Part shown: positions 3,835 to 23,107 of the stretch, one piece after another
How positions within the stretch are numbered: the first letter of the stretch is position 1
Layout: every line of letters starts with the position of its first letter
Notes under the pieces: model-generated
The model's database searches: none
What the model was told of the DNA's origin: nothing
The model's input: only the letters and a program-made list of their open reading frames with translations
Source: an uncultured Actinomycetes bacterium
Lineage (GTDB): Bacteria; Actinomycetota; Acidimicrobiia; Spongiisociales; DATADW01
Assembly: GCA_963824995.1 (NCBI GenBank)
Contig: CAWGRK010000007.1
Coordinates: forward strand, 1-64,000
Length of the DNA: 64,000 bases
Direction: 5' to 3'
Program-made: the position numbers and the translations under genes

Positions 3835-4764
3835 ATGCGGAGCAGCGTCCGCAATGGTGTCATTGGGGCGACCCTGGTGCTGGCCATTCTGGCCGCCGCC
3901 TGCGGGTCGGGTGATGGCACCGGTGAAGCGATTGAAGGACCAACCATCACGATCGGCGCCCAGGACTTCGGCGAGAGCGCCATCCTCGCCGAGATATACA
4001 GCCAGGCCCTCGCCGACGGCGGGTACACCACCGAGGTTCAGAGCCTCGCCGGATTCCGCGACCTGTCGATGGAGGCGTTCGACTCCGGCGAGATCAACTT
4101 CGCACCCGAATACGCCGCATCGATGCTCGAGTTCCTCAACGACTTCGCCGGCGAGGCCACCAGCGACGCTGCCGAGACCACCGAGCTTCTCCAGGCGCGC
4201 CTCGATGAGATCGGGCTGCAGGCTCTCGAGGTGTCCGATGCGGTCGACACGAACGCATTCGTCGTCACCCCCGAGACCTCCGAGGAGTTCGGCATCACCT
4301 CGCTCAGCGACTTGGCCGAGAACGGGGCCGACCTCACGCTGGGCGGGCCCCCCGACTGCGAGACCAACCCGTTCTGCATCCCCGGGCTCCAGGAGGTCTA
4401 CGGCGTGGACCTCAGCGGCAACTTCACGCCGCTCGACGCCGGTCAGGTGACCGTACAGGCGTTGGAGAGCGGCGAGATCGATATCGCCATCCTCTTCTCC
4501 ACCGACGGGATCATCGCCGACAAAGGCTGGGTGCTGCTCGAGGACGACCAGAGCATGCTGGCCGCCGACAACGTGGTGCCCGTGGTCTCCACCGAGGTGG
4601 CGGAGGCATACGGCCAAGAGGTCGCCGATCTGGTCAACGCGGTCAGCGCCGAGCTCACCACCGACGACCTCACCGAGATGAATCGCAAGTTCCTCATCGA
4701 GCAGCAAGATCCTGGAGACATCGCCACCGAGTGGCTCACCGGAAAGGGATTGATCGAGAGCTAG
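3835..4764 (+). CDS. Osmoprotectant ABC transporter substrate-binding lipoprotein (OpuAC family)
   Basis: Lipobox LAAAC; GAQDFGESAILAEIYSQAL, PEY, CIPGLQEVYG; RBS AAAGGAG upstream. Confidence 0.9.
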   Translation: MRSSVRNGVIGATLVLAILAAACGSGDGTGEAIEGPTITIGAQDFGESAILAEIYSQALADGGYTTEVQSLAGFRDLSMEAFDSGEINFAPEYAASMLEFLNDFAGEATSDAAETTELLQARLDEIGLQALEVSDAVDTNAFVVTPETSEEFGITSLSDLAENGADLTLGGPPDCETNPFCIPGLQEVYGVDLSGNFTPLDAGQVTVQALESGEIDIAILFSTDGIIADKGWVLLEDDQSMLAADNVVPVVSTEVAEAYGQEVADLVNAVSAELTTDDLTEMNRKFLIEQQDPGDIATEWLTGKGLIES

Positions 4765-4790
4765 CCCCTCTCGCTCCGACTGACACCGCC

Positions 4791-7700
4791 ATGACTGCCG
4801 GTTACTACCGCCACCCAACCATCAGCGGCGACACGATCGTCTTCGTCTCCGAGGACGACCTTTGGCGCGTTGACGTGGACGGCGGTCCAGCCCAGCGGCT
4901 GACGGCGAACCCGGGCACCGAGACTTTCCCGGTGCTGTCACCCGATGGAGCGTCGGTCGCCTTCACCAGCCGCGACGAGGGCCATCCCGAGGCCTATGTG
5001 ATGTCCGCCGAGGGCGGTCCGCCGCGGCGGCTCACCTTCCTCGGGGTGAACACCCAGGCGGTCGGCTGGTCAAACGACGGCGGACGGGTGCTGGTTGCCA
5101 GCGATTGGCGTCGCCCGTTCCCGATGGACCAGCACATCCACGCCATTTCCGTCGACGGTAGCGAACCGACGCTGCTCCCCTTCGGCCCGGCAAGGGCCAT
5201 CTCGTTCCAAGGCGGTGGTTCGGGTGTGGTCATCGGTCGCAACAGCCGCGACCCGGCTCGCTGGAAGCGGTATCGCGGCGGGACCACGGGGACGTTGTGG
5301 GTAGACCGTCAGGGCGACGGAGACTTCGAGCCACTGATCCGTCTGGAGGGAAATCTGGCCAATCCGATGTGGATCGGGCGACGCATCTACTTCCTGTCCG
5401 ACCACGAGGGGACCGGCAACCTCTACTCGGTGACCCCCACCGGCCGCGGGCTGGAGCGGCACACCGGCCACGAGGACTACTACGCCCGGTTCCCCAGCAG
5501 TGACGGACGCCGGGTCGTATATCACGCCGGCGCCGACCTGTGGCTTTTCGACCCGGTCGAGGAGACCAGCAGACAACTCGATGTGCGCACTCCCAGTGCC
5601 CGCCCCCAGCGGGCGCGTCGCTTCATGGCTCCTGGGCGGCACCTGGAGACGATCGACCTCCACCCCAAAGGCCACTCGGTGGCGCTGGTCGCCCGGGGAG
5701 CAGCCGTGACAATCCCTCTCTGGGAGGGCGCCCCGGTCCGTCACGGCCCGGCCTCCTCAGTGCGACAGCGCCTCGCCACCTGGCTCCCCGACGGTGAGCG
5801 CCTGGTGACCATGAGCGACGCCGAGGGTGAGGAGGCGATCGTGGTGTGGCGTGCCGACGGCACCGCGCCACGACGATTGATAAAGGGTGACGTCGGCCGG
5901 CCCACCGACATCGTGGCGGCCCCTGCGGGGCGTGACAGGGTGGCACTGAGCAACCAGCGCCAGGAGCTGATCGTCGTGGACCTGGCGCAGGGCCGGTCGA
6001 AAGGGATCGCACGGAGTGACTACGAGCGGATACAGGGCATTTCCTGGTCGGCGGACGGACGCTGGCTCGCATACGCCGCATACACCTCGCCGTGCGCGCT
6101 CGGCGATCTTCGTCCACGACACGGTGAACGGGCGGACCAGACAGGTGACACGGTCCGACTTCGTAGACGTCGGGCCCGTCTTTCGACCCGGAGGGCCGTT
6201 ACCTCTACTTCGTCTCGTGGCGGGTGTTCGACCCTGTCTACGACGGGCATTACCACGACTACGGGTTCCCCCGCGGGGGGAGACCCCATCTGGTCACGCT
6301 GCGCGCCACCGAGCCATCGCCGTTCTCCGCCACACAGAGACAGCCACGGGCGCCGGGTCAGCCGGCGGGCCCGGGGGAGGGTCCCGGAAAGCCCGGCCCT
6401 GACAAGACGGGCCCTGACAAGACGGGCCCCGAGAACGCCGCTTCCACCAAAGATCAGGCGCCCCCCGACGTCGAGATCGACTTCGACGGGATCGAGGACC
6501 GGGTCGTTGCTTTTCCCGTTGCCGAGGGTCGTTTTGGCCGTGTGCTCGGGGGGCGGGGCCGGGTCCTATTCACCTCCTATCCGGTGGAGGGGACGCTGGC
6601 ACAACCGGCCCCCGATGGTCCCCCCGAGCCCAAGGGCAAGATCGAGGCCTGGGACTTCGCCCAGGAGAAGGTCGAGCCCGTCATGGAAGGCGTGCTCGAC
6701 ATGACGGTGTCGTTGGACGGGAAGGTGCTCGGGGCGCTCGCCGGACCGAAGGTCCGGGTTGTGGCCGTCGGGTTCAAGGAGGGCGACAAGGCGAACGACA
6801 AGCCGAGCCGCGAGACCGGATGGCTCGACCTGAGCAGGGTCCGTCTCGAGGTCGTGCCCGGCGAGGAGTGGCGCCAGATGTTTCGCGAAGCCTGGCGGCT
6901 CCAGCGGGACCAGTACTGGACCCCCGACATGGCCGGGATCGATTGGATCGCCGTCCACGACCGCTACTTCCCTCTGGTCGACCGGGTTGGTTCGCGGTCC
7001 GAGTTCTCCGACCTCCTCTGGGAGATGCAGGGTGAGTTGGGCACCTCCCACGCCTACGAGCTTGGCGGCGACTACCGGCCGGAGCCCGGGTGGTTCCAGG
7101 GCTTTCTCGGCGCCGACCTGGAAAAGAGCGGCCAGTCGTGGAGAGTGGTCAACATCCCCCGTGGCGACTCCTGGGACGAGGCCGCTCGATCACCGCTGGC
7201 GACACCGGGCCTCGACTTGGCCGAGGGTGATCGGCTCATTGGTATCGACGGTGTCGCCCTCGACGGGACCATGCCGTACGAGCGGTTGGTGGACCGCGCC
7301 GGGAGGCCAGTGCTGCTGACGGTGCAACGAGGCCGGCGCAAGCCCAGATCGGTCGCGGTGGTGACGCTTCGCAACGAGTTCCCGTTGCGCTACCGCGACT
7401 GGGTCGAGGCGAACCGGGCAAAGGTCCACGAAAGGAGCGGCGACCGTCTGGGGTATGTCCACATCCCCGACATGGGGTCGCGGGGGTTCTCCGAGTTCCA
7501 CCGCTACTTCGGAGGCGAGGTGGACCGCGACGGGCTCGTGATCGACGTCCGCAACAACGGGGGAGGGAACGTCTCCGGACTCCTCCTCGAGAAGCTGGCG
7601 AGGCGTCGGGTGGCTTACACCGTCACCCGCTGGGGACAGCCCGATCCCTACCCCGATGACGCACCGTTGGGCCCCATGGTGGCGCTGACCAACGAGCATG

Positions 7701-8101
7701 CCGGGTCGGACGGCGACATCTTCTGTCACGCCTTCAAGATGTACCGTCTCGGCCCGCTGATCGGGGTTCGCACCTGGGGCGGGGTGGTCGGGATATTTCC
7801 GCGCCACGTTCTGGTGGACGGGACCGTGACCACTCAGCCCGAGTTCGCCTTCTGGTTCGAGGACGTGGGTTGGAGCGTCGAGAACTACGGGACAGACCCC
7901 GACATTGTGGTGGAGATGACACCGCAGGACTACGCGGCGGGACGGGACCCGCAGTTGGACAGGGCGATCGACGAAGCGCTCGGCATCGTGGAGCGTTGGG
8001 GCCCGTCGGCCCCCAGCTTCGATCCCCCTCCGTCTCGCCAGGCACCTCGTCTGCCGGTGATCGATCCGCCTCCGGCTCCGGCGAGCGACACCCCGGCCTG
8101 A
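4791..8101 (+). CDS. Tricorn protease (peptidase S41, beta-propellers + PDZ); two apparent indels near 6095 and 6183
   Basis: N-terminus GYYRHPTISGDTIVFVSEDDLW, WKRYRGGT; C-terminus GELGTSHAY, DVRNNGGG, catalytic NEHAGSDGD, RTWGGVVGI; joins ORFs 4731, 6016 and 6224. Confidence 0.9.
6395..6430 (+). repeat. 15-bp in-frame tandem duplication (GGCCCTGACAAGACG x2 plus partial) in the tricorn linker
   Basis: Encodes GPDKT-GPDKT-GP. Confidence 0.85.
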
Positions 8102-8184
8102 CTCGCGCCGAGGTGACGCGCTGAGGGTGCCTCGCCACGGCGAACGCTGGAGCCTGGCCTATCCCACCGCTCAGACTTCTGCGT

Positions 8185-9171
8185 TTGGTGAGGTTCGCGT
8201 GGAGGTCAGGGGCCCTCCTCGTGGTGCTACTCCAGACGCTGCTCATCGCGGCGCCTACGGCGTCTGCCAGCCACGGCTGGCTGTCGTCGCTCGCCCTGGC
8301 CGACTCTCCCGAGCAGCACCTGCTCGAGTTGACCAACGACTCGAGGGCCGCAGCCGGGCTTCCCGATCTGGTCTGGCACGGAGATCTGGCCGATGACGCC
8401 GAGGCTCAAGCACAGCGGATGGCCGACTCGGATCAGCTGTACCACACACCCGATCTGACATCGGTGACCAACGGTTGGGCCAGCCTCGGGGAGAACGTCG
8501 GGTTCGGCGGATCGGTCGATGCCGTCCACGACGCCTTCATGGCATCCACCGGGCACAAGGACAACGTCCTCGGTGGATGGGACTCGATCGGGGTGGGGGT
8601 CGTGGCCGACGGGGGCGTCGTCTGGATATCGGTCATCTTCATGAAGAGCCTCACGCCGAGCGGTGCCTTCACCGACGACGACGGCTCGACCCACGAGGAT
8701 GCGATCAACCGCCTGGCAGCCTCGGGTGTGACCAACGGCTGCGGCGCCGGTGTCTACTGCCCGGAAGACCCGGTGACGCGAGCGGAGATGGCGAGCTTCC
8801 TGGCCAGGGCACTCGGGCTCGCCGATCCCGGGCGGAACGCCTTCTCGGATGATGACGGTTCGGTCCACGAGTGGGCGATCGATGCTGTAGCCAATGCCGG
8901 CATCACATTGGGCTGCGCCACCGGCCGGTTCTGCCCCGAGGAGAGCGTGTCGAGAGCGGCAATGGCCAGCTTCCTCGCCCGTGCCCTCGACTTGGGCGAC
9001 CCCGGCACCGACGTCTTCACGGATGACGACGGCTCTGCTCACGAGGGCGCCATCGACGCCATCGCCGCGGCCGGTGTCACCAACGGCTGCGGCACCGGCA
9101 GGTACTGCCCCGATCAGCCGGTGACCCGCGCCGAGATGGCGAGCTTTCTGGTGAGGGCCTTCAACCTCTAG
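8185..9171 (+). CDS. Secreted CAP (SCP) domain protein with three C-terminal SLH-like repeats
   Basis: Signal peptide; TNDSRAAAGL...GENVG...FMASTGHKDNVL (CAP); three FTDDDGSxHExAIxxxAxxGVTNGC...YCP..PVTRAEMASFL repeats. Confidence 0.85.
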   Translation: MVRFAWRSGALLVVLLQTLLIAAPTASASHGWLSSLALADSPEQHLLELTNDSRAAAGLPDLVWHGDLADDAEAQAQRMADSDQLYHTPDLTSVTNGWASLGENVGFGGSVDAVHDAFMASTGHKDNVLGGWDSIGVGVVADGGVVWISVIFMKSLTPSGAFTDDDGSTHEDAINRLAASGVTNGCGAGVYCPEDPVTRAEMASFLARALGLADPGRNAFSDDDGSVHEWAIDAVANAGITLGCATGRFCPEESVSRAAMASFLARALDLGDPGTDVFTDDDGSAHEGAIDAIAAAGVTNGCGTGRYCPDQPVTRAEMASFLVRAFNL

Positions 9172-9177
9172 AACGAA

Positions 9178-9256
9178 GACGGCGGACGGCGGACGGCGGA
9201 CGGCGGCCCGAATAAGACGGAAGACGGAAGGAAAGAACCCAAGACGGCTGACGGCA
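9178..9256 (+). repeat. Family A heptamer tandem repeats (GACGGCG x4, GACGGAA x2, GACGGCT/A x2)
   Basis: Read directly; begins 7 nt after the TAG at 9171. Confidence 0.9.
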
Positions 9257-9302
9257 GCCAGAACTGAGGTCCATCCGCTTGGTCGAGGGTCAGCGGTTTC
9301 CG

Positions 9303-10367
9303 CTAAGGCCGAGTTTCTAGCTGGGCCACCATTCGCTCGCCGATCTCGGCTGTGCTGGCCCCCATCTCGGGGCCTCCCATGGCGTCGAGGGTGGGGAGGA
9401 CGGCGGCTACCGCCGACTCAATGGCCTGGGCGGCCTCCTTCTCACCGAGATGGTCGAGACACATCGCCGCCGAGAGGACCGCGGCCGCCGGGTTGGCCCA
9501 ACCCTTACCGGCGATGTCGGGCGCCGAGCCGTGGACCGGTTCGAACATCGATGGCCGCCGCCGTTCCGGATCGATGTTTCCCGAGGCGGCTACGCCCATT
9601 CCGCCCTGGATGGCAGCGCCGAGGTCGGTGATGATGTCTCCGAACAGGTTGTCGGTGACCATTACATCGAACCGCCCCGGATCTGTCACCAGATAGAGAC
9701 AAGCGGCATCGACGTGGACGTAGTCGAGTTCGACCGAGGGATGGCTGGCCGCAACCGATGAGGCGGTCCGCTGCCACAGATCACCGGCCCAGGTGAGCAC
9801 GTTTGTCTTGTGGCATAGGGTCAGCTTGTGGCGTCTCCGCTCGGCCAACTCGAACGAGTATCGGATGATCCGCTCTACCCCGTGGTATGTATTGAGCGAT
9901 TCCTGGGTGGCCACCTCTAGCGTGGTTCCCTGGCGGAGGACGCCCCCGGCGCCGGCGTACGGGCCCTCGGTGTTCTCGCGGACGACGACGAGATCGAGCC
10001 GTTCGGGCGTCAGTCCGGCCACCGGTGAGGGGACTCCTTGGTAGAGCTTGACCGGGCGGAGGTTCACGTAGAGGTCGAAGTCGAAGCGAAGCCTGAGCAG
10101 CAGTCCCCGCTCGAGGACACCAGGGGGGACCTCGGGAGTGCCCACCGCCCCGAGCAGGATGGCGTCGTGCTCGGCCAGTTCCGCCTCCACTCCGTCTGGG
10201 AGCACCTCACCGGTGCGCAGGTAGCGGTCGCCACCGAGGTCGTACGGACTCTCCTCGATGGTGAACCCGAACCGGTGCCCGACGGCGCGTGTCGCCTCGA
10301 GCGCCACGGCGGTGACCTCGGGGCCGACCCCGTCACCCCCGATCACGGCAATCCGGTAGTTGGCCAT
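9303..10367 (-). CDS. leuB: 3-isopropylmalate dehydrogenase
   Basis: [43 protein letters not shown]. Confidence 0.93.
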
Positions 10368-10429
10368 CGGCGGCACGCTACTGCCCACCACCCGGCGCAA
10401 CTCTTCAGAGCAGCGACGATGATGGTGTC

Positions 10430-11218
10430 GTGATCGACAATCGGATCCCGGACCCGTACCGGACCCTCGGAGTGGACCCGGCGACGCCACCTGAGGAGGT
10501 GCGGCGCGCCTACCTGAGGGCCATCCGGGCGGTCCACCCCGACCTGGCTCCCGGGCGGGAGGAGGAGGCCAGGGCGATCAACCAGGCCTACCGGGCGATC
10601 CTGGGCCGGCAGCGCGCCGCTTCGACGCCGGCGTCGGGTGCCACGGCACCGCCCCCGCCTTCGCCACCGCAGACTGCAACTCGGCCTGGATCACCGGCTC
10701 CGCGCCGGGTCCATCGCCCGAGCGTCGCCGAGAGGGTGTCGCTTTGGACCGGGGCCATCGTGGTGGTCGGTATCGCCCTGTGGGCGGGAACCGCCGTGCG
10801 GAGTGGCCCTACTGCGGTTACCCCATCCGAGCCAAACCCGGCCACGGTCATCGCCGAGTGCGAGATGGAGGTCTCGGCAGCGTTCGGACGGGCGCTCGAC
10901 GCTCACGACAGGGCCGACATCGCGGTGACAAGAGCGGCTGCAGCGGGGGGCCTCTCCGAGGAACCGGCCCGGCTCGACGGGTCGCTCGCCGCCGCTGAAA
11001 GCGGGGTGCGGAGGCTTGATCGGAGCCAGCTCAGCGACGCCGGGCAGCGGCTGGCATCGAGCGTCCTGGCGCTCATCGAAGACGACCGAGTGATCGTGGC
11101 CCACGCCTCGCAGCGGCGCTGGGATCTCGTCGGAATCGGTCAGCGCCAAGCCGACGCCCAACTCGACCAGACCCTCGATCTGATCCGGGCCACCGCCACC
11201 CTCCCACTCTGCGGGTGA
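10430..11218 (+). CDS. J-domain (DnaJ-like) membrane protein
   Basis: DPYRTLGV...VRRAY...HPD...INQAY, Pro-rich linker, one TM helix, helical C-terminus. Confidence 0.75.
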
Positions 11219-11249
11219 GCGAACTGGCGGCGACCGGAATTCCGCGGCC

Positions 11250-11305
11250 AAATAAACGGAGCCGGGTTCGCCTCCGACCATGCGGTCTGTGCGAACCCGG
11301 CTCCG
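11250..11305 (-). terminator. Intrinsic terminator for the minus-strand repeat-protein gene
   Basis: Perfect 15-bp stem CGGAGCCGGGTTCGC (11257-11271) / GCGAACCCGGCTCCG (11291-11305) followed by TTTATTT on the minus strand. Confidence 0.75.
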
Positions 11306-11330
11306 CGCCGGTGAGTGAATCAGCCTCGTT

Positions 11331-11913
11331 TCACGGTGCCTCGCGCACCTGCACGTCCGAGAATGTGATCTGGGCTGGTCTCCCGCCCAGTCCGGCCACC
11401 GCCTCGCGCGCTTGGACGTTGCTGTAGGTGATCCGTGCGGGTGAAGTACCCAGCCCGGCAACCGCTTCCCTCGCCTGGACGTTGGAGTAGGTGATCCGTG
11501 CGGGTGAAGTACCCAGTCCGGCCACCGCTTCCCGTCGCCTGGACGTTGGAGTAGGTGATCCGTGCGGGTGAAGCACCCAGCCCGGCCACCGCTTCCCTCG
11601 CCTGGACGTTGGAGTAGGTGATCCGTGCGGGTGAGGCACCCAGCCCGGCCACCGCTTCCCGTGCCTGGACGTTGGAGTAGGTGATCCTCCCCGGTTGCCC
11701 AGTCAGCGCCGGAGCCTCACGGATGAACGTCTGGGACTGCGTTATCTCCGCCGCCCGCTCCACCGGCTGCCATTGAGCCCACAGGGCGACGGCCAGACCG
11801 ATGAGCACCGCTGCCACCCCAATCACCCAAAAGGTGACCTGTCGTCCCTGGTTGGCGCTCTCCCGATGGAGAAGCTCCCGCTCGAGTGTCTCTGTCTTCG
11901 CTGTGACAGCCAT
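11331..11913 (-). CDS. Small single-TM protein with tandem 21-aa repeats (ITYSNVQAREAVAGLG[A/T]SPAR); about 193 aa after correcting one extra base near 11534
   Basis: ATG at 11913 with GAGGAGG RBS; TM FWVIGVAAVLIGLAVALWA; joins ORFs 11320..12285 and 11331..11639; terminator downstream. Confidence 0.8.
11334..11686 (-). repeat. 63-bp tandem repeat, five full copies plus one partial degenerate copy
   Basis: Unit approximately GCCTGGACGTTGGAGTAGGTGATCCGTGCGGGTGA(A/G)G(C/T)ACCCAG(C/T)CCGGCCACCGCTTCCC on the + strand. Confidence 0.92.
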
Positions 11914-12009
11914 CGCAACCTCCTCGTCGCTATTCGGCGTCGGGGTCACTTGTACGACAGGCGAATTGCGGATTCCTGGGGATCGGCTTGGCGAGCGGGC
12001 TCTCGGCTC

Positions 12010-12050
12010 ACAAAGCCGGCTCCAAGAGTCCTTAAAGCGCCTCAAGTGAG
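12010..12050. promoter_or_regulatory. Putative SARP/OmpR-type operator: (A/C)AAG direct repeats at 11-bp spacing in the divergent intergenic region
   Basis: ACAAAGCCGGC TCCAAGAGTCC TTAAAGCGCCT CAAG; AAG ends at 12015, 12026, 12037 (fourth at 12046). Confidence 0.4.
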
Positions 12051-12103
12051 ACTCCCGACCTGTGGACGACTGGTCGAGCGCCGAACCTGCGAGAATTGGC
12101 GGC

Positions 12104-15100
12104 GTGGAGTACCGGGTTCTGGGACCGCTCAGCGCGGTCCAATCCGGGGAGGCGAGAGCGCTCGGGGGCCCTCGGCAAAGGATGGTGCTGGCCGTTTTGC
12201 TCGCCAGCGCCAACAAAGTCGTCTCCCAAGACGCCCTGATCGAAGCGGTGTGGGCGGGGGAGCCACCGGAGGCGGCGAAGGCCACGCTGCATAGCTACGT
12301 CTCGCTGCTTCGCAAGGAGCTTGGGGGGGAGATCGCCCGGGAGGGTGACGGCTACCGGGTGGTGGTCGAAGACGATTCGCTCGACGCCCTTCATTTCGAG
12401 CGGCTGGTCATCGATGGCCGGAAAGAGCTCGGCTCCGATCCGGCTTCCGCCCTCGCCACGCTCCAGGAAGCACTCGAGCTGTGGCACGGCTTGCCCTACG
12501 GTGACTTGAGCGGGGCACCGGCGCTGATGGCCGAGGTCTCCCGTCTCGACGAGTTGCGTGTCACCGCGGTGGAGAGCAGGGTCGAAGCCGCCCTGGCGGT
12601 GGGGAACCATGCCTCTGTTGTCGGCGAGTTGGAGACCCTGGTCAGGGAGTATCCCTACAGGGAGCGACTTCGTGGCCTCCAGATGCTCGCCCTATACCGC
12701 TCGGGCCGCCAGGCTGAGGCGCTCCGCGCCTACCAACGGGCCCGCACCCTGCTCGGTGAGGAATTGGGCATCGAGCCTTCGCCGGAACTGCGCGACCTCG
12801 AACAGCGGATTCTCGAGCAGGACGCCGGACTCGACTTCGTCGCGGATACGACGAGTCTCCGTCTGCGGAGACAGATCCCACCGAACTCGAGACGGGTCGG
12901 ACGGTCCGCGGCTACGAACTGCGCGAACAGATCGGGGAGGGGGATTTCGGATACGTCTACCGGGCCTATCAGCCGTCGGTGGGCCGCGAGGTTGCGATCA
13001 AGGTGATCCGACCCGAATACGTCAACAGGTCGGACTTCCTCATGCGCTTCGAGGCCGAGGCCCAACTGATCGCCCAGTTGGAGCACCCCCATATCGTCGG
13101 GTTGCTCGACTACTGGCGGGATCCCGAGGGCGCCTACCTCGTCATGCCGCTGCTCCGGGGCGGGAGCCTGGCCGAAGCGCTGAGGCTCGGACCCTGGAAC
13201 CTGGGGGCGGCGCTCCAGCTACTGGACGAGGTTGGCGCCGCCCTGGGTTATGCCCACCGCCGCGGGCTGATCCACCGTGACATCAAGCCGGGCAACATCC
13301 TCCTCGACGAGGAGGGCAACGCCTACCTGGGGGACTTCGGGATCGCCCTCCGGCTCATCGACCCGGCCGGGACGCCGATCACATCGTCGCTCTCCTACCT
13401 CCCCCCTGAAGAGACCCGTGGCGAACAGCTCACCCAGGAAGCAGACATCTTCAGCCTCGGCGTGCTGGCCTTTCATCTCTTCACCGGTGTGTACCCGGCA
13501 GGCCGCCGCCCCCTGCCGTCGGTTGTGGACGCCCGTCCCGGTCTGCCGTCAGAACTCGATGCAGTGCTGCGCAGGGCTACCGACGATCAGCCGGGCAACC
13601 GGTACGAGAGGGTCGATGACTTCCTGCGTGCGGTGCGACGTGCCGTTGGTACCGACGTGGTGGCGATTGCGGAGACCGACGACGTGACGGCGGCGAGTGG
13701 CGGAGTTCGCAACCCATACAAAGGCCTGCGCTCCTTCGCCGAGACCGATGCCCTCGACTTCCATGGGCGCGACGTTCTGGTCGACGAGTTGCTCCGGGCA
13801 ATCGGCGCCCACCCCGTGGTTGCTGTGGTCGGACCTTCCGGAAGTGGCAAGTCCTCGGTGGTCCGTGCCGGTCTCATTCCCGCCCTGCGGGCAGGTGGGC
13901 TCGGCTCGAAGGACTGGCTGGTCACCGACATGTTTCCCGGTTCATATCCGTTCGAGGAGTTGGAAGCGGCCCTGCATGCGGGTGGCGGTGGAGAGACCAC
14001 CCGAGTGCATCGACGAGTTGATTTCGGATGAGCGCGGGCTGTTGCGGGTCACCAAGCAGATCCTCCCTGCCGACGAGAGCCGTCTGCTTCTGGTGATCGA
14101 TCAATTCGAGGAGTTGTTCTCCGCAGTTGGTGCTGAGGAGACACGCCGGCTCTTTCTCGACAGCCTGGTGACCATCGCCACAGACGAGCGGAGCCGGGTG
14201 CGCGTCGTTCTCACCATGCGCGCCGATTTCTTCGACCGCCCGCTCGAGTACCCCGAGTTCGGCGATCTGATGAGCGCCGGGCTGGTCACGGTGAGCCCGC
14301 CAACCGAGGAGGGGCTGGCGCAGGCGATCGCAGCACCGGCCCGCGCCGTCGGGGTCGATCTGGAGCCGGGGCTTGTGGGGGAGATCATCCGCGATGTGGC
14401 GGACCAGCCCGGCGCGCTTCCCCTCCTCCAATATGCATTGACCGAATTGTTCAACCGTCGCCAGGGGAATCTGCTCACCCTCGACGCCTACCGCTCCACC
14501 GGAGGGGTGGCGGGGGCGCTGGGGCGGAGAGCCGAGGAGTTGTACGAGGGGCTCTCATCCGAGGGGAAGCAAGTCGCCCGTCAGGTCTTTCTCCGGCTGG
14601 TGGCCGTGGACGAACTATCCGGTGACTCCCGTCGCCGGGTACGACAGGCCGAGCTGAAGAGCCTGGCGGTCGATCAAGCGGCGCTCGACACCGTGCTCCG
14701 CCAGTTCGGGTCCTTTCGTCTGCTCTCCTACGACCGGGACCCTGTCACCAGGGGACCGACAGTCGAGGTGGCACACGAGGCGCTGCTCCGGGAATGGGAT
14801 CGTCTGGCCGGTTGGATCGACGCCGAGCGGGAGAACCTCCTCGTCCAGCGGCGCATAGGCGCCACGGCCCGGGAGTGGGCGGACTCGGGCGGCGACCCGG
14901 GTTTTCTCCTCCGTGGCGGTCGGCTGGATCAGGCGGAGCGTTGGGCGCAGAGCACCGACATCGCGCCGTCGGAAGAGGAATCCGAGCTCTTGGAGGCGAG
15001 CCGCCATCTCAGAGATTCTGAGGCCAGGACGGCGAAACGTCGCCGCCGGGTACTGATCGGACTGCTGGCCGGCGGGTTGTCGGTGGCCATCGTGCTCGCC

Positions 15101-17334
15101 GCGCTGGCGTTGTGGCAGCGCGGGCTTGCCCAGGGTGAGGCTCGCCGCGGAGCGGTATACGGGCTTGCCGGGGCGTCGGAATCGGTTCTCGACGAAGACC
15201 CCGAGCTGGCCATTCTCCTGGCGCTCAAAGCGGCAGCCGTGTCGGAAGACGCCGGCGATCCGGTGACACCGGGCACGCTCACCGCTTTGCAGGGCGCGGT
15301 CCAGAACTCGAGGCTGGAGTCGGTAATCGAGGGCGGCTTGTGGGGCGTGGCGGTCAGTTCTGACGGCTCGCTTCTGGCCACGCCCTCCGCCGATAGTGAT
15401 GAGGTCATTATCTGGGACCCAGTCACCGGAGAGAAGCTGAAGACACTCGCCGGCCCGCCCACTCCTGACGCGGTCGAGTTCAGTCCTACCGGCACGCTGC
15501 TTGCGGTGGGGCACGGACCCGGTACAGACAGCGATGAGGGGTCGATAACGGTGTGGGACGCCGAAACCGGTGACGAGGTGGCACGGCTGGCTGCAGGTGA
15601 CGAATGGCCGGTGCCGCACTGGAGCCCCGACGGCACTCTCCTCATCGCCGTCGGCCATGAGGCAACCGAAGAGCGGCCGGTCAGGGTGTGGCAGTCCCCA
15701 TCGATGAATCAGGTCAATTCGTTCCTTCTACCCGGCACCAGTAAGTCGGAGCGCTTTCTCGACCCCATCACGCTGGCGGTGGGACGACCTGGCGACGACC
15801 GCGTCGGTTTCTACGACGTGACCACCGGCGACGAGGTCGAGGACCTGGACATCGACGACATCCCCTAGTGACGACTGCCGCAACCGCCATCGGCGTCGAC
15901 GCGGTAGGTGGCCGGTTGGTGCTGGTGGGCTCCGATACCCAGGTTTGGGACCTCGAGTCAAAGTCGCTCTTATGGAGGGCAAACACCACCGACTTTCCGG
16001 AAGTCGACCCGGCCCGTGGCTGGGTGGCGACATACGGCAACGGGGGAGTGATCAAGGTGCTCGACCTGCAAGACGGATCCGAGATCATGACCCTGGCAGG
16101 GCACCCCGCGGCGGTGAACGACGTCGCCTTCGACCCCACCCGTCAGCAGCTCTACAGCGCCCCTCAGGCCGGAGGAACCCGGATCTGGGACATCACACCT
16201 GCTGGACCGACGGGTTCGGGTGTGATACCCATCGACTCCGGACAGAACATGTCGACCTCCCCGGGACCCGTTCATATGGTTGTGTCTCCAGACGGGAGCG
16301 AGGTGGCCGATCACCACGGGCGGTGGCAAGATCACCCGGTACGCATCCGGCAGCGGTGCAATCCTGGGCTCGGTAGACGGGGCGATGAACTGGTTTCTCC
16401 CGGCACCGGTGAGCCCGGATTGGCGGTTGCTCGCCGTGGTCCCGCCGGACCTCGTCCCCGGCACGGGCGAACCGCTCCCCGTAGCGTCGATCGAACACCT
16501 GACAACCGGCGAACCGGTCGACCAACTCCCCCCATGCGTCTGGCCAAAGGGTTTCAGCAGCGATGGTGCGATGCTGGTGCTCGATGGCGGCGAGACTTCA
16601 TCCCTTCTGCCGCAGTGCTCACCCGAAGACGTCGCGGCCGATATCGACCTGCGATCGAGGGTGATCGACGTCCTCACCGGGGAAGTGCTGCTCGATTTGG
16701 GCGACCGGGAGCTGGTGGGCCATGCGCTGTTCAACCCGCCCGGGGTCTTCGAAGCCGACCGTTACCTGGCGGTCAACGTCAGCTTCTATCACGGTCGAGA
16801 TCCACGACATGGTCACCGGTGAAATGGTCGCCGAGATCTCTTTCGAAGGAGGAGACGAGATCCCGCTGTCCTTGGCATTCGACCCCACTGGTCAATACCT
16901 CGCCACCGGAGGGCAGAACGGCCACGCCTGGGTGGTGGATGTCAAAGCGTTGGTCGGGGGCGCATCGGTCGAGGAGGCGATGGTCTTGTTCGAGGAGGTG
17001 GGCAGCGGCGGGGTCGCGCAAGTCGCCCTTGGACCGGATGGTGTTCTCGCCACGGCGGCCCACGACCCGAACATACGGCTGTGGGACATCCACAGCGGCC
17101 AGATGCTCCACGAATTGGCCAAGACGCCCGACGTCCCTCGTCCGGTGGCATTCGGTCCGGATGGCGAACTGCTCTACATCGACGGCAACATGGAACGAGG
17201 GCCATGTGGTGCGGACCTTCCTCCTCGATGCAGATCGGATGATCGACCTGGCCGAGAGCAGGGTGACCAGGAATCTCACCGAGGAAGAGTGCGAGCGCTA
17301 CCTCCCCGACAGCAACCTGGTCAGTTGCCCGTAG
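12104..17334 (+). CDS. Large multidomain regulator: wHTH + BTAD (SARP) + Ser/Thr kinase + STAND (nSTAND1-like) NTPase + TM + WD40 propellers; about six apparent indels
   Basis: MEYRVLGPL...ALYRSGRQAEALRAY...ELGIEPSPEL (SARP); GEGDFGYVY, VAIK, HRDIKPGN, DFG (kinase); NPYKGL, GPSGSGKSS, LVIDQFEELF, GALPLLQYAL, EVAHEALLREW (STAND); TM VLIGLLAGGLSVAIVLAALALW; WD repeats; C-terminus RVTRNLTEEECERYL; frame changes near 12890, 13975, 15865, 16310, 16790, 17190. Confidence 0.85.
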
Positions 17335-17349
17335 CCGAGCAGCGACAGG

Positions 17350-17738
17350 GATCAGCCCGACGAGGGACGCCATCTCCAGACTCGGGATGTCCTCAAAGTC
17401 GGCGACGTTCAAGCTCCACAGCTTTGCTTCGCGGACAATGGCGTGAGCCGCAATCGCCAAGTCGAGCTCGCGTCCCCGTGGGCCGGTTCACTTGTCGATA
17501 GAGGCGGGACGCCTCCAGAGCCTCCTCGACCCCGAATGGTAGGGCGTGCTCATGCGGGAAGAGAGCCTCCTGCGCGGCCAGCTCCTCCTCGCGTCGTGGT
17601 CCACGCCACCACTCGTAGAGGACTACTGCCGGGAGGAGCAAGCCTCTCGCCGGCGGCGATGAGCTGCCTCAGCCGGCCGGATGAGCGCTTCGGACCGGTG
17701 AGGCTGTCGATCAGGGCCGATGTGTCGACGATGGTCAT
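17350..17738 (-). CDS. PIN-domain toxin (VapC family); apparent indels, 3' end approximate
   Basis: MTIVDTSALID...VLYEWWRG...DLAIAAHAIVREAKLWSLNVADFEDIPSL assembled from three frames. Confidence 0.75.
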
Positions 17739-18032
17739 GCTGGCGATGACCTTGAGCTCTGCCTGCCCCCCTGGCGGCGGCTGCGCCGTAATGCGGCCAA
17801 CTCCTCGTCTGCCTCGGATAGCCGGTCGAGCCGGGATCGCCGGCACGAACTCGTCGAAGGCCTGGAGCAATCGCCTACGTTCGGCTTCGCTCAGGCGCCC
17901 CAACCGCTCGGCATATTCCTGTATCGCATCACGCACCACCTCGCTCTTCGGCTTGCGTAGTGCATCGGCGGTTTGGCTGAGCCGAGTTGCGGTGGCCTCG
18001 TCGAGACTGAAGGTCATCTTGACCGAAGCCAT
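17735..18032 (-). CDS. Ribbon-helix-helix (CopG-like) antitoxin; one apparent indel near 17820
   Basis: MASVKMTFSLDEAT...KPKSEVVRDAIQEY; corrected frame ends in a TGA overlapping the PIN gene ATG (ATGA). Confidence 0.75.
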
Positions 18033-18056
18033 ACTCAGGCCATAATACCATACTGA

Positions 18057-19592
<1,536 letters not shown>

Positions 19593-19608
19593 TGCGTTCG
19601 CTCCTTGA

Positions 19609-19729
19609 GACGGAAGACGGAAGTGCTCGGCCGGGTCAGCCGGTGAGGCCGCCCGGCCCAGTAAGCGCCAGACCGTGTCGGGGTGGTGTCTTTGCTTCCG
19701 ACTTCCGCCTTCCGACTCCCGACCGCCGA
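19609..19729. repeat. Inverted pair of family A heptamer arrays (19609-19623 and 19695-19729) bracketing a GGCCGGG/CCCGGCC hairpin in the ilvC-leuA spacer
   Basis: GACGGAA x2 on +; CTTCCG(A/C)-type x5 on +; hairpin 19629-19658. Confidence 0.75.
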
Positions 19730-19736
19730 AGGCTGC

Positions 19737-20741
19737 TCATGGAGCGTCCTGAGGCGTCAAGAACGGCATCATCTGTCGCAGCTCGCGGCCGACCTGCTCG
19801 ATGGGTTGCTCGCGCTCGGCGGCGCGGTTCTCGAGGAGGAAGGGGGCGCCCTCGCGCGCCTGTGCCATCCATTCCCGGGCGAATGCGCCGGAGCGCACCT
19901 CTTCGAGGATGCGTCGCATCTCGGCCCGGGTCTCATCGGTGACGATCCGGTTGCCCCGGGTGTAGTCGCCGTATTCGGCGGTGTCGGACACCGAGTACCG
20001 CATCCAGGAGAGGCCGCCCTCGTAGAGGAGGTCCACGATCAGCTTCAACTCGTGGAGGGTCTCGAAGTAGGCGGACTCTGGCTGGTAACCCGCCTCGACC
20101 AGTGTGTCGTACGAGGCCTTGATCAGGGCGGAGATCCCACCGCACAGGATGACCTGCTCACCGAAGAGGTCGGTCTCGGTCTCTTCGGCGAATGTCGTCC
20201 CCAGCACCCCGGCCCTGGTCCCTCCGATGCCCCATGCATAGGAGAGCCCGAGGTCGTGTGCCTTCCCCGTTGCGTCCTGGTGGACGGCGAGCAGGCAGGG
20301 GACGCCGGATCCCTCGGTGTAGGTGCGACGCACCAGGTGTCCGGGTCCCTTGGGCGCCACCATCACCACGTCGACGTCCTCTGGCGGCTGGATCTCGCCG
20401 AAGTGGATGTTGAACCCGTGGGCGAAGAAGAGGGCGTCGCCTGCGTCGAGGTTGGGCATGACGTCGGCCCGGTAGATGTCACCCATATGCTGATCGGGAA
20501 CCAGGAGCATCACCAGATCACAAGACGCTGCGGCATCGGCGGGGGTGGTGACGCGCAGCCCTGCTTCTTCGGCGGCGGCTGCGCTGGCGGAGCCGGCCCG
20601 GAGGCCGACGTTCACCTCGACACCCGACTCGGTGAGGTTGAGCGCATGGGCATGCCCCTGGCTGCCGTACCCGATCACCGCTACCCGCCTGCCGCGGATG
20701 ATCGACGGGTCGGCGTCGCCGTCGTACCAGATGGTTGCCAT
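19737..20741 (-). CDS. ilvC: Ketol-acid reductoisomerase
   Basis: [37 protein letters not shown]. Confidence 0.97.
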
Positions 20742-20763
20742 TTCGCTCAGCCTCGCTTCTCGT

Positions 20764-21267
20764 TTATCCGACCGCTCGCAACTTGCCCCCCTTGACCTTT
20801 GGCTCGCGGGCCACTGCGATCCTCCCCGACTTGACCAGGTCGACGATCCCGTACGGCCGGACCAGGTCGAGGAAGTCGTTGACCTTTTCCGGGCTCCCCG
20901 CCACCTGGAAGGCTATAGAGGCCGGTCCGACGTCCACCGTCACCGCCTTGAAGATGGCGGCGACCTCGAGCGCCTCGCCCCTCTTGCCCGGCGGTGTGGA
21001 GACCCGGACCAGCATGATCTCCCGCTCGACCGACGACTCGGGGGCAAGCTCGGTTATCCGGACCACGTTGATCAGCTTGTGAAGCTGCTTCTTCACCTGC
21101 TCCAACTCGGGGGCGTCGACCACGATGGTCATCCGTGACATCCCCTCCTCGGCGGCGGGACCGACCGCCAGCGAGTGGATGTTGAACCCCCTCCTCGCCA
21201 GCAACGAAGCGATCCGAGCCAGCACCCCTGGCTTGTCCTCCACGAGCACCGAAAGGATGTGGTGCAT
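20764..21267 (-). CDS. ilvN: Acetolactate synthase small (regulatory) subunit
   Basis: [38 protein letters not shown]. Confidence 0.95.
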
Positions 21268-21288
21268 CAGGCGGACCTCCGGCTCGCC

Positions 21289-21378
21289 GTACTTAGTACT
21301 GAGTACTTAGTACCTAGAACGAGTGGCGAGCGCCGCTCGGGCATTCTGGCTGCCGTCCGCCGTCCGCCGTCCGCCGTC
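21289..21378. repeat. Family B (GTACT(T/G)A-type, 21289-21317) and family A (CGCCGTC x4, 21351-21378) heptamer arrays in the ilvB-ilvN spacer
   Basis: Read directly; small hairpin CGAGTGGC/GCCGCTCG between them. Confidence 0.88.
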
Positions 21379-21382
21379 CTTG

Positions 21383-23107
21383 TCATGGAAGATCGCTCGC
21401 TGATTCGACACCCAAGGCGGTTCCTTCGAGCCCGAGGATGACGTCGTCGTTGGACCCACCGGCGGGGACCATGGGGAAGACCATCTCATCGGGGTCCACC
21501 ACGAACTCGACCACCACCGGGCGGTCGTCCACCGCCAGCGACTTCTCGATGGCTGGGGCGACTTCATCGGGTGTCTCTGCCCGGAGCCCGACACAGCCCA
21601 TCGCCTCTGCCAGCTTGGGGTAGTCGAGCTTGTCTCCCAGCAGACTGGCGGAGAGCCGCCCACCGTAGAAGAGCTTCTGCCACTGCTTGACCATGCCGTG
21701 GGCGCCGTTGTTGATCACGGCGACCTTGATCGGGATCTCTTCGGTGGCGGCGGTGATCAACTCCTGGAGGGTCATCTGGAAACATCCGTCGCCGTCGATG
21801 GCGTAGACCAGCTCGTCGGGTCGGCCGGCTTTGGCGCCGATCGCCGCCGGGACGGCAAACCCCATGGTCCCTAGCCCTCCCGAGTTGATCCATCGCCGCG
21901 GCTCGGTGAAGCGCCAGAACTGCGATGCCCACATCTGGTGCTGACCGACACCGGCCACCAGGATGGCGTCGCCACCGGTGAGGCGGTGAAGTTCCTCGAC
22001 CACGAATTGGGGTTTGATCGGCCCGTCGGGCCGCTGGTCGTAGTGGAGCGGGTAGCGCCGTTGCCAGCCTGCCAGGGTGTCGAGCCACTCCGACCGGTCG
22101 GGGGTGGGTCGCGTCCCCCATGCCTCGATCAGTTGGACGAGGACTCGTCGGGCGTCGCCAACGATGGGGATGTCCGCCACCCGTACCTTCCCGATCTCCG
22201 CCGGGTCCACGTCGGCATGGATGACCTTGGCACCGGTGGCGAAGCTGGCAGGGTTGCCGGTCACCCGGTCGTCGAACCGGACCCCAATGGCGATCAGCAG
22301 GTCGGCCCGCTGCAGAGCGGTGATGGCGGTGTAGGTGCCGTGCATCCCTGGCATTCCCAGCGCCAACGGGTGATCATCGGGGATGGCACCGCGCCCCATG
22401 AGAGTGGTGGTTACCGGGACACCCGCCAGCTCGGCGAATCTCCTCAACTCGGCGTGGGCGTCCGCCTTGATCACTCCGCCGCCGACATAGAGGACCGGCC
22501 TCTCGGAGGAAGCGATCAACCCGACAGCCTCTTTGATCCGTAGGGGATGACCGTCGCTCGTCGGCTTGTAGCCGGGGAGGTTGAGCGGGGACGGATCGCG
22601 CCATGCCGTTTCGCGGTTGAGGACGTCCTTGGGCACGTCAACCAATACCGGCCCGGGTCGGCCGGTGGCGGCGATGTGGAACGCCTCGTGGACGACGTCT
22701 GGGATGTCCTCGACCTCGGTGACGAAGTAGTTGTGCTTGGTGGCGGGCATGGTGATGCCCGTGGTGTACGCCTCCTGGAAGGCGTCGTTCCCCACGGCGT
22801 GGGTCGGTACCTGCCCGGTGATCGCCACCAGTGGAACCGAGTCGATGAGGGCGTCCGCCAGTGGGGTGACCAGGTTGGTGGCGCCGGGTCCGGACGTGGC
22901 GATGCATACCCCGACCCGGCCGGTGGCCCAGGCGTAGCCCTCTGCCATGTGCCCGGCGCCCTGCTCGTGGCGGGCCAGGATGTGGCGGATAGGGCTGGCC
23001 AGGATGGGGTCGTAGGCGGGGAGGATGGCGCCGCCCGGTACGCCGAACATGACATCGACCCCCTCGTATTCGAGGGCTCTGATCAGGATGTCTGCGCCGG
23101 TGCTCAT
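21383..23107 (-). CDS. ilvB: Acetolactate synthase large subunit
   Basis: [34 protein letters not shown] motif. Confidence 0.96.

Follow-up and report, generated by a model that had tools for sequence, protein, structure and literature searches.

A candidate lineage-specific signaling module pairing a membrane-spanning SARP-kinase-nSTAND1-WD40 receptor with a divergent tandem-repeat membrane protein in uncultured Acidimicrobiia

We analyzed a stretch of 64,000 nucleotides (the window) from contig C7 of an uncultured Actinomycetes bacterium (CAWGRK010000007.1, positions 1 to 64,000) and examined two divergent genes located between positions 11331 and 17334. The receptor gene (12104 to 17334, plus strand) encodes a large protein predicted to cross the membrane once, and the small gene (11331 to 11913, minus strand) encodes a small protein with one predicted transmembrane (TM) helix and tandem repeats. 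The two genes appear to form a lineage-specific two-gene signaling module that would work by the mechanism proposed below, a reading that we hold with moderate confidence. In the best reading of the locus, the small divergent gene is the dedicated partner gene of the receptor. Contig C7 is part of a 2.9-Mb genome (17 contigs, 66% G+C), and the nearest public relatives of the window are labeled as uncultured Actinomycetes or Acidimicrobiia metagenome-assembled genomes. A sequence-only reading of the window had described a winged helix-turn-helix (wHTH)-BTAD-kinase-NTPase-TM-WD40 protein of ~1,740 amino acids (aa), standing head to head and 190 bp apart with a small gene that has its own ribosome-binding site and terminator and encodes one TM helix and 21-aa repeats, with 11-bp-periodic AAG repeats in the spacer. 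All of these features were recovered at the positions given below. The Pfam matches and the TM helix agree with the described domain order, the receptor length requires read-through of frame breaks as had been stated, and the two start positions (11913 and 12104) leave a spacer of 190 bp at 11914 to 12103.

The receptor consists of ~1,740 aa after read-through of six frame breaks, near 12852, 13975, 15868-15874, 16307, 16792, and 17197. Its N-terminal part (12170 to 12814) is a SARP module, in which an OmpR-type wHTH domain is followed by a BTAD domain, the combination that defines this family; both domains were matched by Pfam in the open reading frame (ORF) at 12062 to 13006 (Trans_reg_C, 4.6e-9, 36.7 bits against a cutoff of 26.2; BTAD, 4.4e-46). 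The receptor can probably switch genes on directly. The SARP module is followed by a Hanks-type Ser/Thr kinase (12934 to 13500; Pkinase, 2.5e-35, in the ORF at 12979 to 14031), which contains the Gly-loop GEGDFG, the VAIK lysine, HRDIKPGN, and DFG. Next comes an nSTAND1 NTPase (PF20703; 13714 to 14899), whose profile is covered across a frame break, with positions 1 to 90 in the same ORF as the kinase (1.4e-27) and positions 95 to 378 in the ORF at 13697 to 15868 (1.2e-86). The NTPase keeps both Walker A (GPSGSGKSS, 13831 to 13857) and Walker B (LLLVIDQFEE, 14084 to 14113). Directly behind an RRRR stretch, a single hydrophobic TM helix (15050 to 15115) stands between the NTPase and the C-terminal WD40 beta-propeller region (15300 to 17334), as in the nSTAND1+TM+BetaPropeller layout. 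Propellers were matched in four ORF pieces, including that at 13697 to 15868 and the further ORFs at 15868 to 17334 and 16722 to 17501.

We then compared the receptor with its relatives, which were collected with the kinase/STAND junction as a query (140 found, 80 loci kept). Among 14 intact homologues scanned, 10 showed the order BTAD-Pkinase-nSTAND1-WD40, and the other four, from Chloroflexota, began at the kinase. An Arg-rich stretch and a TM helix behind the nSTAND1 domain are conserved in nearly all of the 80 loci whose frame extends that far. From the charge distribution around the helices, by which the topology of both proteins was assigned, the receptor is predicted to lie with its N terminus in the cytoplasm and its C terminus outside (N-in/C-out), which would place the propellers outside the cytoplasm. 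The layout "wHTH-4stranded+TPRs+Pkinase+nSTAND1+TM+BetaPropeller" is listed in the fig2-data1 supplement of Kaur, Iyer, Burroughs, and Aravind (2021, eLife; PMC8195603), in which "nSTAND1+TM" occurs 461 times. As far as that supplement was available, it gives architectures and neighborhoods only, with no function, topology test, or small TM-repeat partner. WD40 and transmembrane forms are both absent from the available text of a 2024 review of SARPs, and a full-text literature search found no functional study of SARP-kinase-nSTAND1-TM-WD40 proteins. By its domains, the receptor belongs to a family that has been catalogued but not studied, and its layout is not new. The claim of the sequence-only reading that no system with this pairing had been described therefore holds for the partner but not for the receptor layout.

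The small gene begins with an ATG at 11913, preceded at 5 nt by the Shine-Dalgarno sequence AGGAGG (11919 to 11924, minus strand). Its product has a Thr-rich N-terminal tail of ~25 residues, one TM helix by hydropathy (residues 26 to 48; 11770 to 11838), and 21-aa tandem repeats of the unit ITYSNVQAREAVAGLGxxPAx, which are encoded by a 63-bp tandem array of 4.8 copies (11386 to 11687; TRF, 92% matches, score 497). The gene ends at an intrinsic terminator (11250 to 11310, minus strand), in which a long G+C-rich hairpin with a 16-bp stem is followed by the U tract GUUUAUUU, as expected of a Rho-independent terminator. The hairpin has a folding energy of −49 kcal/mol (z, −5.5), none of 200 shuffled sequences folded as stably, and this was the single minus-strand site in the terminator scan. 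The small gene in the window carries one frame break, an extra base near 11536 that is private to the window. An intact orthologue of 182 aa is encoded at L002:5360-5905. In a four-way alignment of the window with its three closest loci (L001 to L003, 87 to 88% nucleotide identity), indels of 63 bp and 60 bp give the gene a different repeat copy number from genome to genome.

The partner belongs to no described family. Pfam gave no family above the cutoff for the small protein of the window or its orthologue, LEM and SAP included, and a match to TAL-effector repeats was rejected (21.8 bits against a cutoff of 28). An AlphaFold2 (AF2) model of the intact orthologue, built from a five-row alignment (mean predicted local distance difference test [pLDDT] score, 65.9), contained a helix at residues 28 to 48 with low pLDDT (~43 to 51) and one strand of 13 to 14 residues per repeat (pLDDT, 70 to 86). 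A Foldseek search of this model against PDB returned nothing at an E value of ≤0.001; the weak matches were beta-solenoids (ice-binding proteins, the CAP C-terminal domain, and curli), and the protein was not filed there. The best look-alike in the ESM Atlas scored 0.77 and serves as a lead only. With tblastn, the small protein matched only L001 to L003 among the 80 loci, and a word-based search of 5.8 billion proteins gave four matches. A profile search of 1.84 billion representative proteins gave 26 matches at an E value of ≤0.001, of which seven are true relatives (P0001 to P0004, P0007, P0008, and P0015). The 19 longer matches (P0009 to P0028) were set aside: the nine inspected were all unrelated repeat proteins (LRR, coiled-coil, or decapeptide repeats), and the remainder were taken to be likewise. 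Among 201 genomes of the order, strong matches occurred only in the genus of the window, with the 21-aa type in four and a second type in four of its six genomes. These genomes are 72 to 93% complete, so that a missing match does not equal absence. Weak matches in three other families of the order (E value, about 5e-4) cover little beyond the TM stretch and were not counted. In a six-frame search of the whole window genome, the motif [FYW][STA][NDS]VQ[AVI]R was found only in the small genes of C7 and C15. On these comparisons, the partner family is new and confined to one genus.

The pairing of the two genes recurs within this genus. A small gene lies at the same divergent position in L001 to L003, and the window genome contains two more receptor paralogues, on contigs C3 and C15. 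The C15 paralogue (L081) has a divergent small gene whose 160-aa product begins with MAVTT and carries one TM helix and one GITFSNVQAREA unit, behind which lie three other repeats of ~30 aa. With the MAVT-like N terminus, the TM helix, and the repeats as the marks of the small-gene family, a divergent small gene was found 135 to 190 bp from 9 of the 21 SARP-bearing receptor paralogues in the six genomes of the genus. By partner type, these nine pairings comprise four of the 21-aa type and five of the helix-extension-helix (HeH) type. In the second receptor clade, the partner in L136 matched LEM (2.5e-13, 49.8 bits) and SAP (1.2e-8) above the cutoff, as did the partner in L140 with similar values, and the LEM and SAP matches of the C15 partner fell below it. 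The metagenome protein P0015 (184 aa) is a hybrid, in which GITFSDVQAREA units alternate with LEM/SAP-like helical units; because it carries both repeat types, the 21-aa and HeH partners are considered to be one family. Nine of the 12 known copies of this family adjoin a receptor, two are divergent from a stand-alone receiver-domain (REC) gene, and one lies on a 1.8-kb contig. In the two genomes of the genus where the 21-aa small gene had no match, a close (>90%) orthologue of the receptor is likewise missing. Because the pairing recurs in the genus, the two genes probably work together.

In a phylogeny of SARP domains (IQ-TREE, 30 rows and 248 columns), the paired groups fell into two separate clades with support of 100/99 and 100/100, and the nearest outgroups of both clades, which belong to other genera, have no small gene. 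The pair may be ancient and have been lost many times, or recruitment of the small gene may have happened on two occasions; both histories argue against chance pairing. Two further observations were made on these relatives. A third MAVT-TM-repeat type, with units of ~20 aa (GITxxDVQVREA), is encoded at L093:980-1896 and L092:1486-2413, in divergent orientation to a gene for a stand-alone receiver domain. No small divergent gene accompanies the third receptor paralogue of the window genome (L082, minus strand of C3 with a start near C3:15440); the gene upstream of this paralogue is co-directional and frame-broken and encodes a secreted protein of ~450 aa.

The frame breaks were examined by the four-way alignment. 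Each of the four genomes has its own private 1-bp indels at differing positions. The ratio of nonsynonymous to synonymous substitution rates (dN/dS), calculated for the window against L001 to L003, was 0.04 to 0.16 for the SARP, kinase, and STAND domains and 0.15 to 0.33 for the WD40 propellers, which exceeds that of the cytoplasmic domains; the receptor is thus under purifying selection. Indel errors are general in these assemblies, since a tricorn gene in the window is also split and leuA and its neighbor contain 14 private indels in L002. Because the breaks are private and different in each genome, the dN/dS values indicate purifying selection, and other genes are affected as well, we read the breaks as assembly errors, and both the receptor and the small gene are most likely intact in the cell. 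Contigs assembled from four runs of soil short reads gave pieces of 115 to 409 nt, most of them only 90 to 95% alike, and none bridged a break site. No paired receptor available has an uninterrupted propeller sequence, as each one carries a frame break or runs off its contig before or within the propeller region. A search for RNA evidence across 11250 to 13250 returned none.

Next, the spacer was compared among relatives. It contains a block, GTCACTTGTACG (11945 to 11956), that is identical in all four genomes, and four YNNAAG units on the plus strand (12010 to 12046), namely, ACAAAG at 12010, TCCAAG at 12021, TTAAAG at 12032, and CTCAAG at 12041, in steps of 11, 11, and 9 bp. All four genomes keep the AAG cores of the first three units, but the fourth unit is not conserved. 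Three AAG at 11-bp steps within 190 bp are not unlikely by chance according to a rough estimate, and the weight of these units comes from the comparison with relatives and not from the spacing alone. The last two units form a pair resembling the CTTAAG-N5/6-CTTAAG of the HeH-type spacers. Such a pair was defined as two hexamers, each with at most one mismatch from CTTAAG, 10 to 12 bp apart. The whole 2.9-Mb genome contains eight pairs, two of which are in its module spacers (at 12031 and C15:18972). The pair was present in five of eight tested module spacers and in none of 12 regions upstream of unpaired paralogues; a ninth module (G039_C3c) also has it, bringing the total to six of nine. The spacer of a REC-linked small-gene copy has no pair, so that the element goes with the receptor and not with the small gene. 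The fairest independent test is the C7 site, for which the chance expectation is roughly 0.0005 to 0.003. The spacing of 10 to 12 bp fits a SARP, since the direct repeats recognized by SARPs have a spacing of 11 or 22 bp (PMC10936776). The candidate operator, like the partner family, is new and confined to one genus.

Some other features of the spacer were recorded. The spacer is 61 to 63% identical between the window and L001 or L002, against 87 to 96% for the receptor. The segment at 11691 to 12103, which covers the spacer together with the 5' portion of the small gene, occurs as two haplotypes, one in the window and L003 and the other in L001 and L002, that are ~62% alike; this suggests replacement or fast divergence of this stretch alone. 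Palindromes containing TTAA are strongly avoided in the window genome, with 7 CTTAAG and 12 GTTAAC sites against 303 GAATTC and 240 CAATTG sites. A generic repeat finder applied to two spacers returned short two-copy families only. An exact CTTAAG pair at the distant locus L053 is not significant alone, as ~0.7 pairs are expected near 70 gene starts, and it is of interest because L053 also shares a CTAGGAT box.

Taken together with the predicted topology, these elements suggest a mechanism. The SARP module, the Hanks-type kinase, and the NLR-like ATP switch of the single-pass receptor would be cytoplasmic, with the propellers outside, and the small protein, also predicted to be N-in/C-out, would expose its tandem repeats as the outer part. 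Because both proteins have the same predicted orientation, it is plausible that the propellers and the repeats share a common outer face. A cue met by the propellers would cause nucleotide-dependent oligomerization of the STAND domain, which would activate the kinase and gather the SARP domains on the direct repeats, spaced by ~11 bp, that lie between the two genes. The divergent promoter region would then change its transcriptional output toward the small gene, toward the receptor gene itself, or in both directions. In the Esr pathway of oral Actinobacteria, a surface WD40 propeller starts a kinase-dependent defense response (PMC13622651), an example of extracellular propeller action in this phylum.

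Several results weigh against this reading. In ORF screens and protein searches, 12 of the 21 paralogues in the genus had no small gene, and this small gene stands beside none of 77 more distant receptor loci. The interpretation in the sequence-only reading, by which the receptor would activate the repeat gene, is partly supported. Its two-gene module has support within the genus, where two clades share the pairing, but not beyond it, where tabulation of the upstream neighbors gave a different partner at 10 of 70 loci (described below). No strong match to the small protein was found in the 195 other genomes of the order. Private 1- to 2-bp indels are ~10 times denser in the module (11331 to 17334) than in the flanks (6100 to 11100 and 17700 to 21700) of the window, L001, and L003, which leaves some room for real decay; the dense indels possibly result from mixing of paralogues or strains during consensus building. 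The AAG block is ~70% conserved between the two spacer haplotypes, compared with 62% for the whole spacer, and with two lineages this conservation is weak evidence. The CTTAAG motif was defined after inspection of the spacers, which makes its statistics partly circular, and the spacers of L001 to L003 hold only degenerate forms. In three modules of the HeH type, the site is perfectly palindromic and would be suitable for a dimeric regulator that is not a SARP, and the motif is shared by SARP domains that are only 40 to 47% identical, which is unexpected for private operators. In addition, a sigma-70 promoter scan of 11150 to 12200 gave no sites, and no −10 element was found at the SARP-typical distance of 8 bp from the repeats.

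A close parallel in logic is the AfsK-AfsR-afsS system of Streptomyces coelicolor, in which the kinase AfsK phosphorylates AfsR, which activates afsS, a small gene next to its own, by way of two 11-bp direct repeats (PMC10936776 and PMC10972967). Both systems combine a Ser/Thr kinase, a SARP-STAND ATPase with a repeat sensor, and an adjacent small gene, which in S. coelicolor is the target. In the module, however, the kinase and the SARP-STAND protein are one membrane-spanning polypeptide, the NTPase is nSTAND1 rather than NB-ARC, the sensor is WD40 rather than TPR, and, unlike afsS, the small partner is itself a membrane protein encoded divergently. AfsS contains short repeats. Assignment of the receptor to the large SARPs of the AfsR type was ruled out by its nSTAND1 NTPase, WD40 sensor, inserted kinase, and TM helix; by analogy, the receptor would work like such a SARP without being a member. 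The proposed logic would be that of AfsK-AfsR-afsS compressed into one membrane protein and an adjacent small repeat protein. The layout of Kaur et al. has the same domain order, including the TM helix between the NTPase and the propeller. In Mycobacterium tuberculosis, the transmembrane Hanks-type kinase PknH signals to the SARP-type EmbR, and the kinase PknD has an extracellular beta-propeller; unlike in the module, these functions are spread over separate proteins, which have neither a STAND module nor a small repeat partner. In ToxR-ToxS and VtrA-VtrC, a wHTH regulator tethered by one TM helix carries its sensor domain on the outer side and is paired with a small single-pass protein from the adjacent gene. 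The module resembles them in the OmpR-type wHTH, the single TM tether, and the small membrane partner next door. Those systems have no kinase or STAND switch, the paired genes are co-transcribed, and the outer domains are small and are not propellers. The module was not assigned to the ToxR/ToxS-like class of two-protein regulators because its genes are divergent and do not form an operon.

Among the alternatives to transcriptional control of the small gene by the receptor, the one that survives best is that the small protein acts as a co-sensor or bait, that is, as the extracellular partner of the receptor, much as ToxS is for ToxR or VtrC for VtrA, whose repeats are bound or monitored by the WD40 propellers, so that a swap of repeats retunes sensing. 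The predicted N-in/C-out orientation of both proteins is consistent with this possibility, and the outer parts evolve fastest, as seen in the dN/dS of the WD40 region, the 62% nucleotide identity of the N-terminal part of the small gene between haplotypes, and the variable copy number. The repeat type also switches between receptor clades, the hybrid P0015 exists, and the single long strand per repeat in the AF2 model may form an exposed beta stack. However, known pairs of the ToxRS type are co-transcribed and not divergent, and two copies of the small gene adjoin a stand-alone REC gene with no propeller nearby. We consider this alternative unlikely. A more specific form, which we regard as improbable, is a guard-type receptor, whose propellers would watch the repeats of the partner outside the cell; foreign disturbance or binding of the bait would flip the STAND switch, upon which the kinase and the SARP module would fire, and the swap between beta and helix-extension-helix repeats in sister modules would reflect an altered detection range.

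A role in conflict or defense is equally doubtful. The nSTAND1 receptor would be an NLR-like sensor of threats, and the small protein would be an inducible effector, for example, one that alters the envelope or damages the membrane. The nSTAND1 domain was defined in predicted counter-invader systems (PMC8195603), the Esr propeller likewise starts a defense response (PMC13622651), and the partner is fast-evolving, restricted to one lineage, and replaceable, as the other proteins at 10 of 70 loci elsewhere illustrate. On the other hand, no toxin-like domain was seen, and the N-terminal "effector" of the receptor is a transcription activator with a kinase, i.e., signaling equipment. The locus also lies among housekeeping genes, with leuB and a DnaJ-domain gene on the left and leuA and an ilvB-like gene on the right; no mobile or defense genes were seen among these neighbors, a PADLOC scan not being part of the search. 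The least probable explanation is that the small gene is an unrelated orphan surface protein gene next to a receptor pseudogene: seven frame breaks in 5.8 kb compared with one in ~7.9 kb of flanking genes, together with a small gene that has no known family and almost no relatives, would fit decay and a chance neighborhood, but the pairing is found again and again across six genomes and two receptor clades, each genome has private breaks at positions of its own, dN/dS is 0.04 to 0.33, and the tricorn gene and the leuA region of L002 are also affected.

Finally, the upstream neighbors of receptors in other clades were screened at 70 loci. This screen was crude, as ORFs were scored by the G+C content of third codon positions, and it is unreliable at low G+C. 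At 10 loci (L007, L016, L021, L022, L025, L026, L034, L046, L049, and L053), a secreted protein of ~190 aa with the motif HEMGHxW (HExxH) and no Pfam family is encoded just upstream of the receptor, mostly in the divergent orientation, and 47 of the upstream neighbors were singletons. Of these loci, L007 is among the nearest outgroups of the receptor clade of the window. The pairs in other Actinomycetota resemble the module in having a receptor of the same family and a small exported protein encoded just upstream, whereas the partners themselves are unrelated in sequence, one with a metallopeptidase-like motif and the other with a TM helix and repeats. Since none of the 77 more distant loci has it, pairing with a TM-repeat gene is not a rule of the receptor family. 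The same position is occupied by different small exported proteins in different clades (TM with beta repeats, TM with HeH repeats, or HExxH proteins), and these clade-specific partners suggest a general design, by which a single switch across the membrane would control a single surface protein or work together with it. The partner occurs in only one genus, of uncultured soil bacteria, and so has little direct reach. Soil Actinomycetota and Chloroflexota contain many SARP-kinase-nSTAND1-TM-WD40 proteins, and a dedicated partner gene with a candidate operator would give this receptor family a measurable output and a short, mutable DNA site.

Two other genes to the left of the module were recorded. 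The tricorn-type protease gene (4731 to 8101), with a PD40 propeller, Tricorn_C1, PDZ, and Peptidase_S41 domains, is split over two overlapping frames, presumably through an assembly indel. The region at 8185 to 9171 encodes a protein that joins a CAP (cysteine-rich secretory protein) domain with S-layer homology domains.

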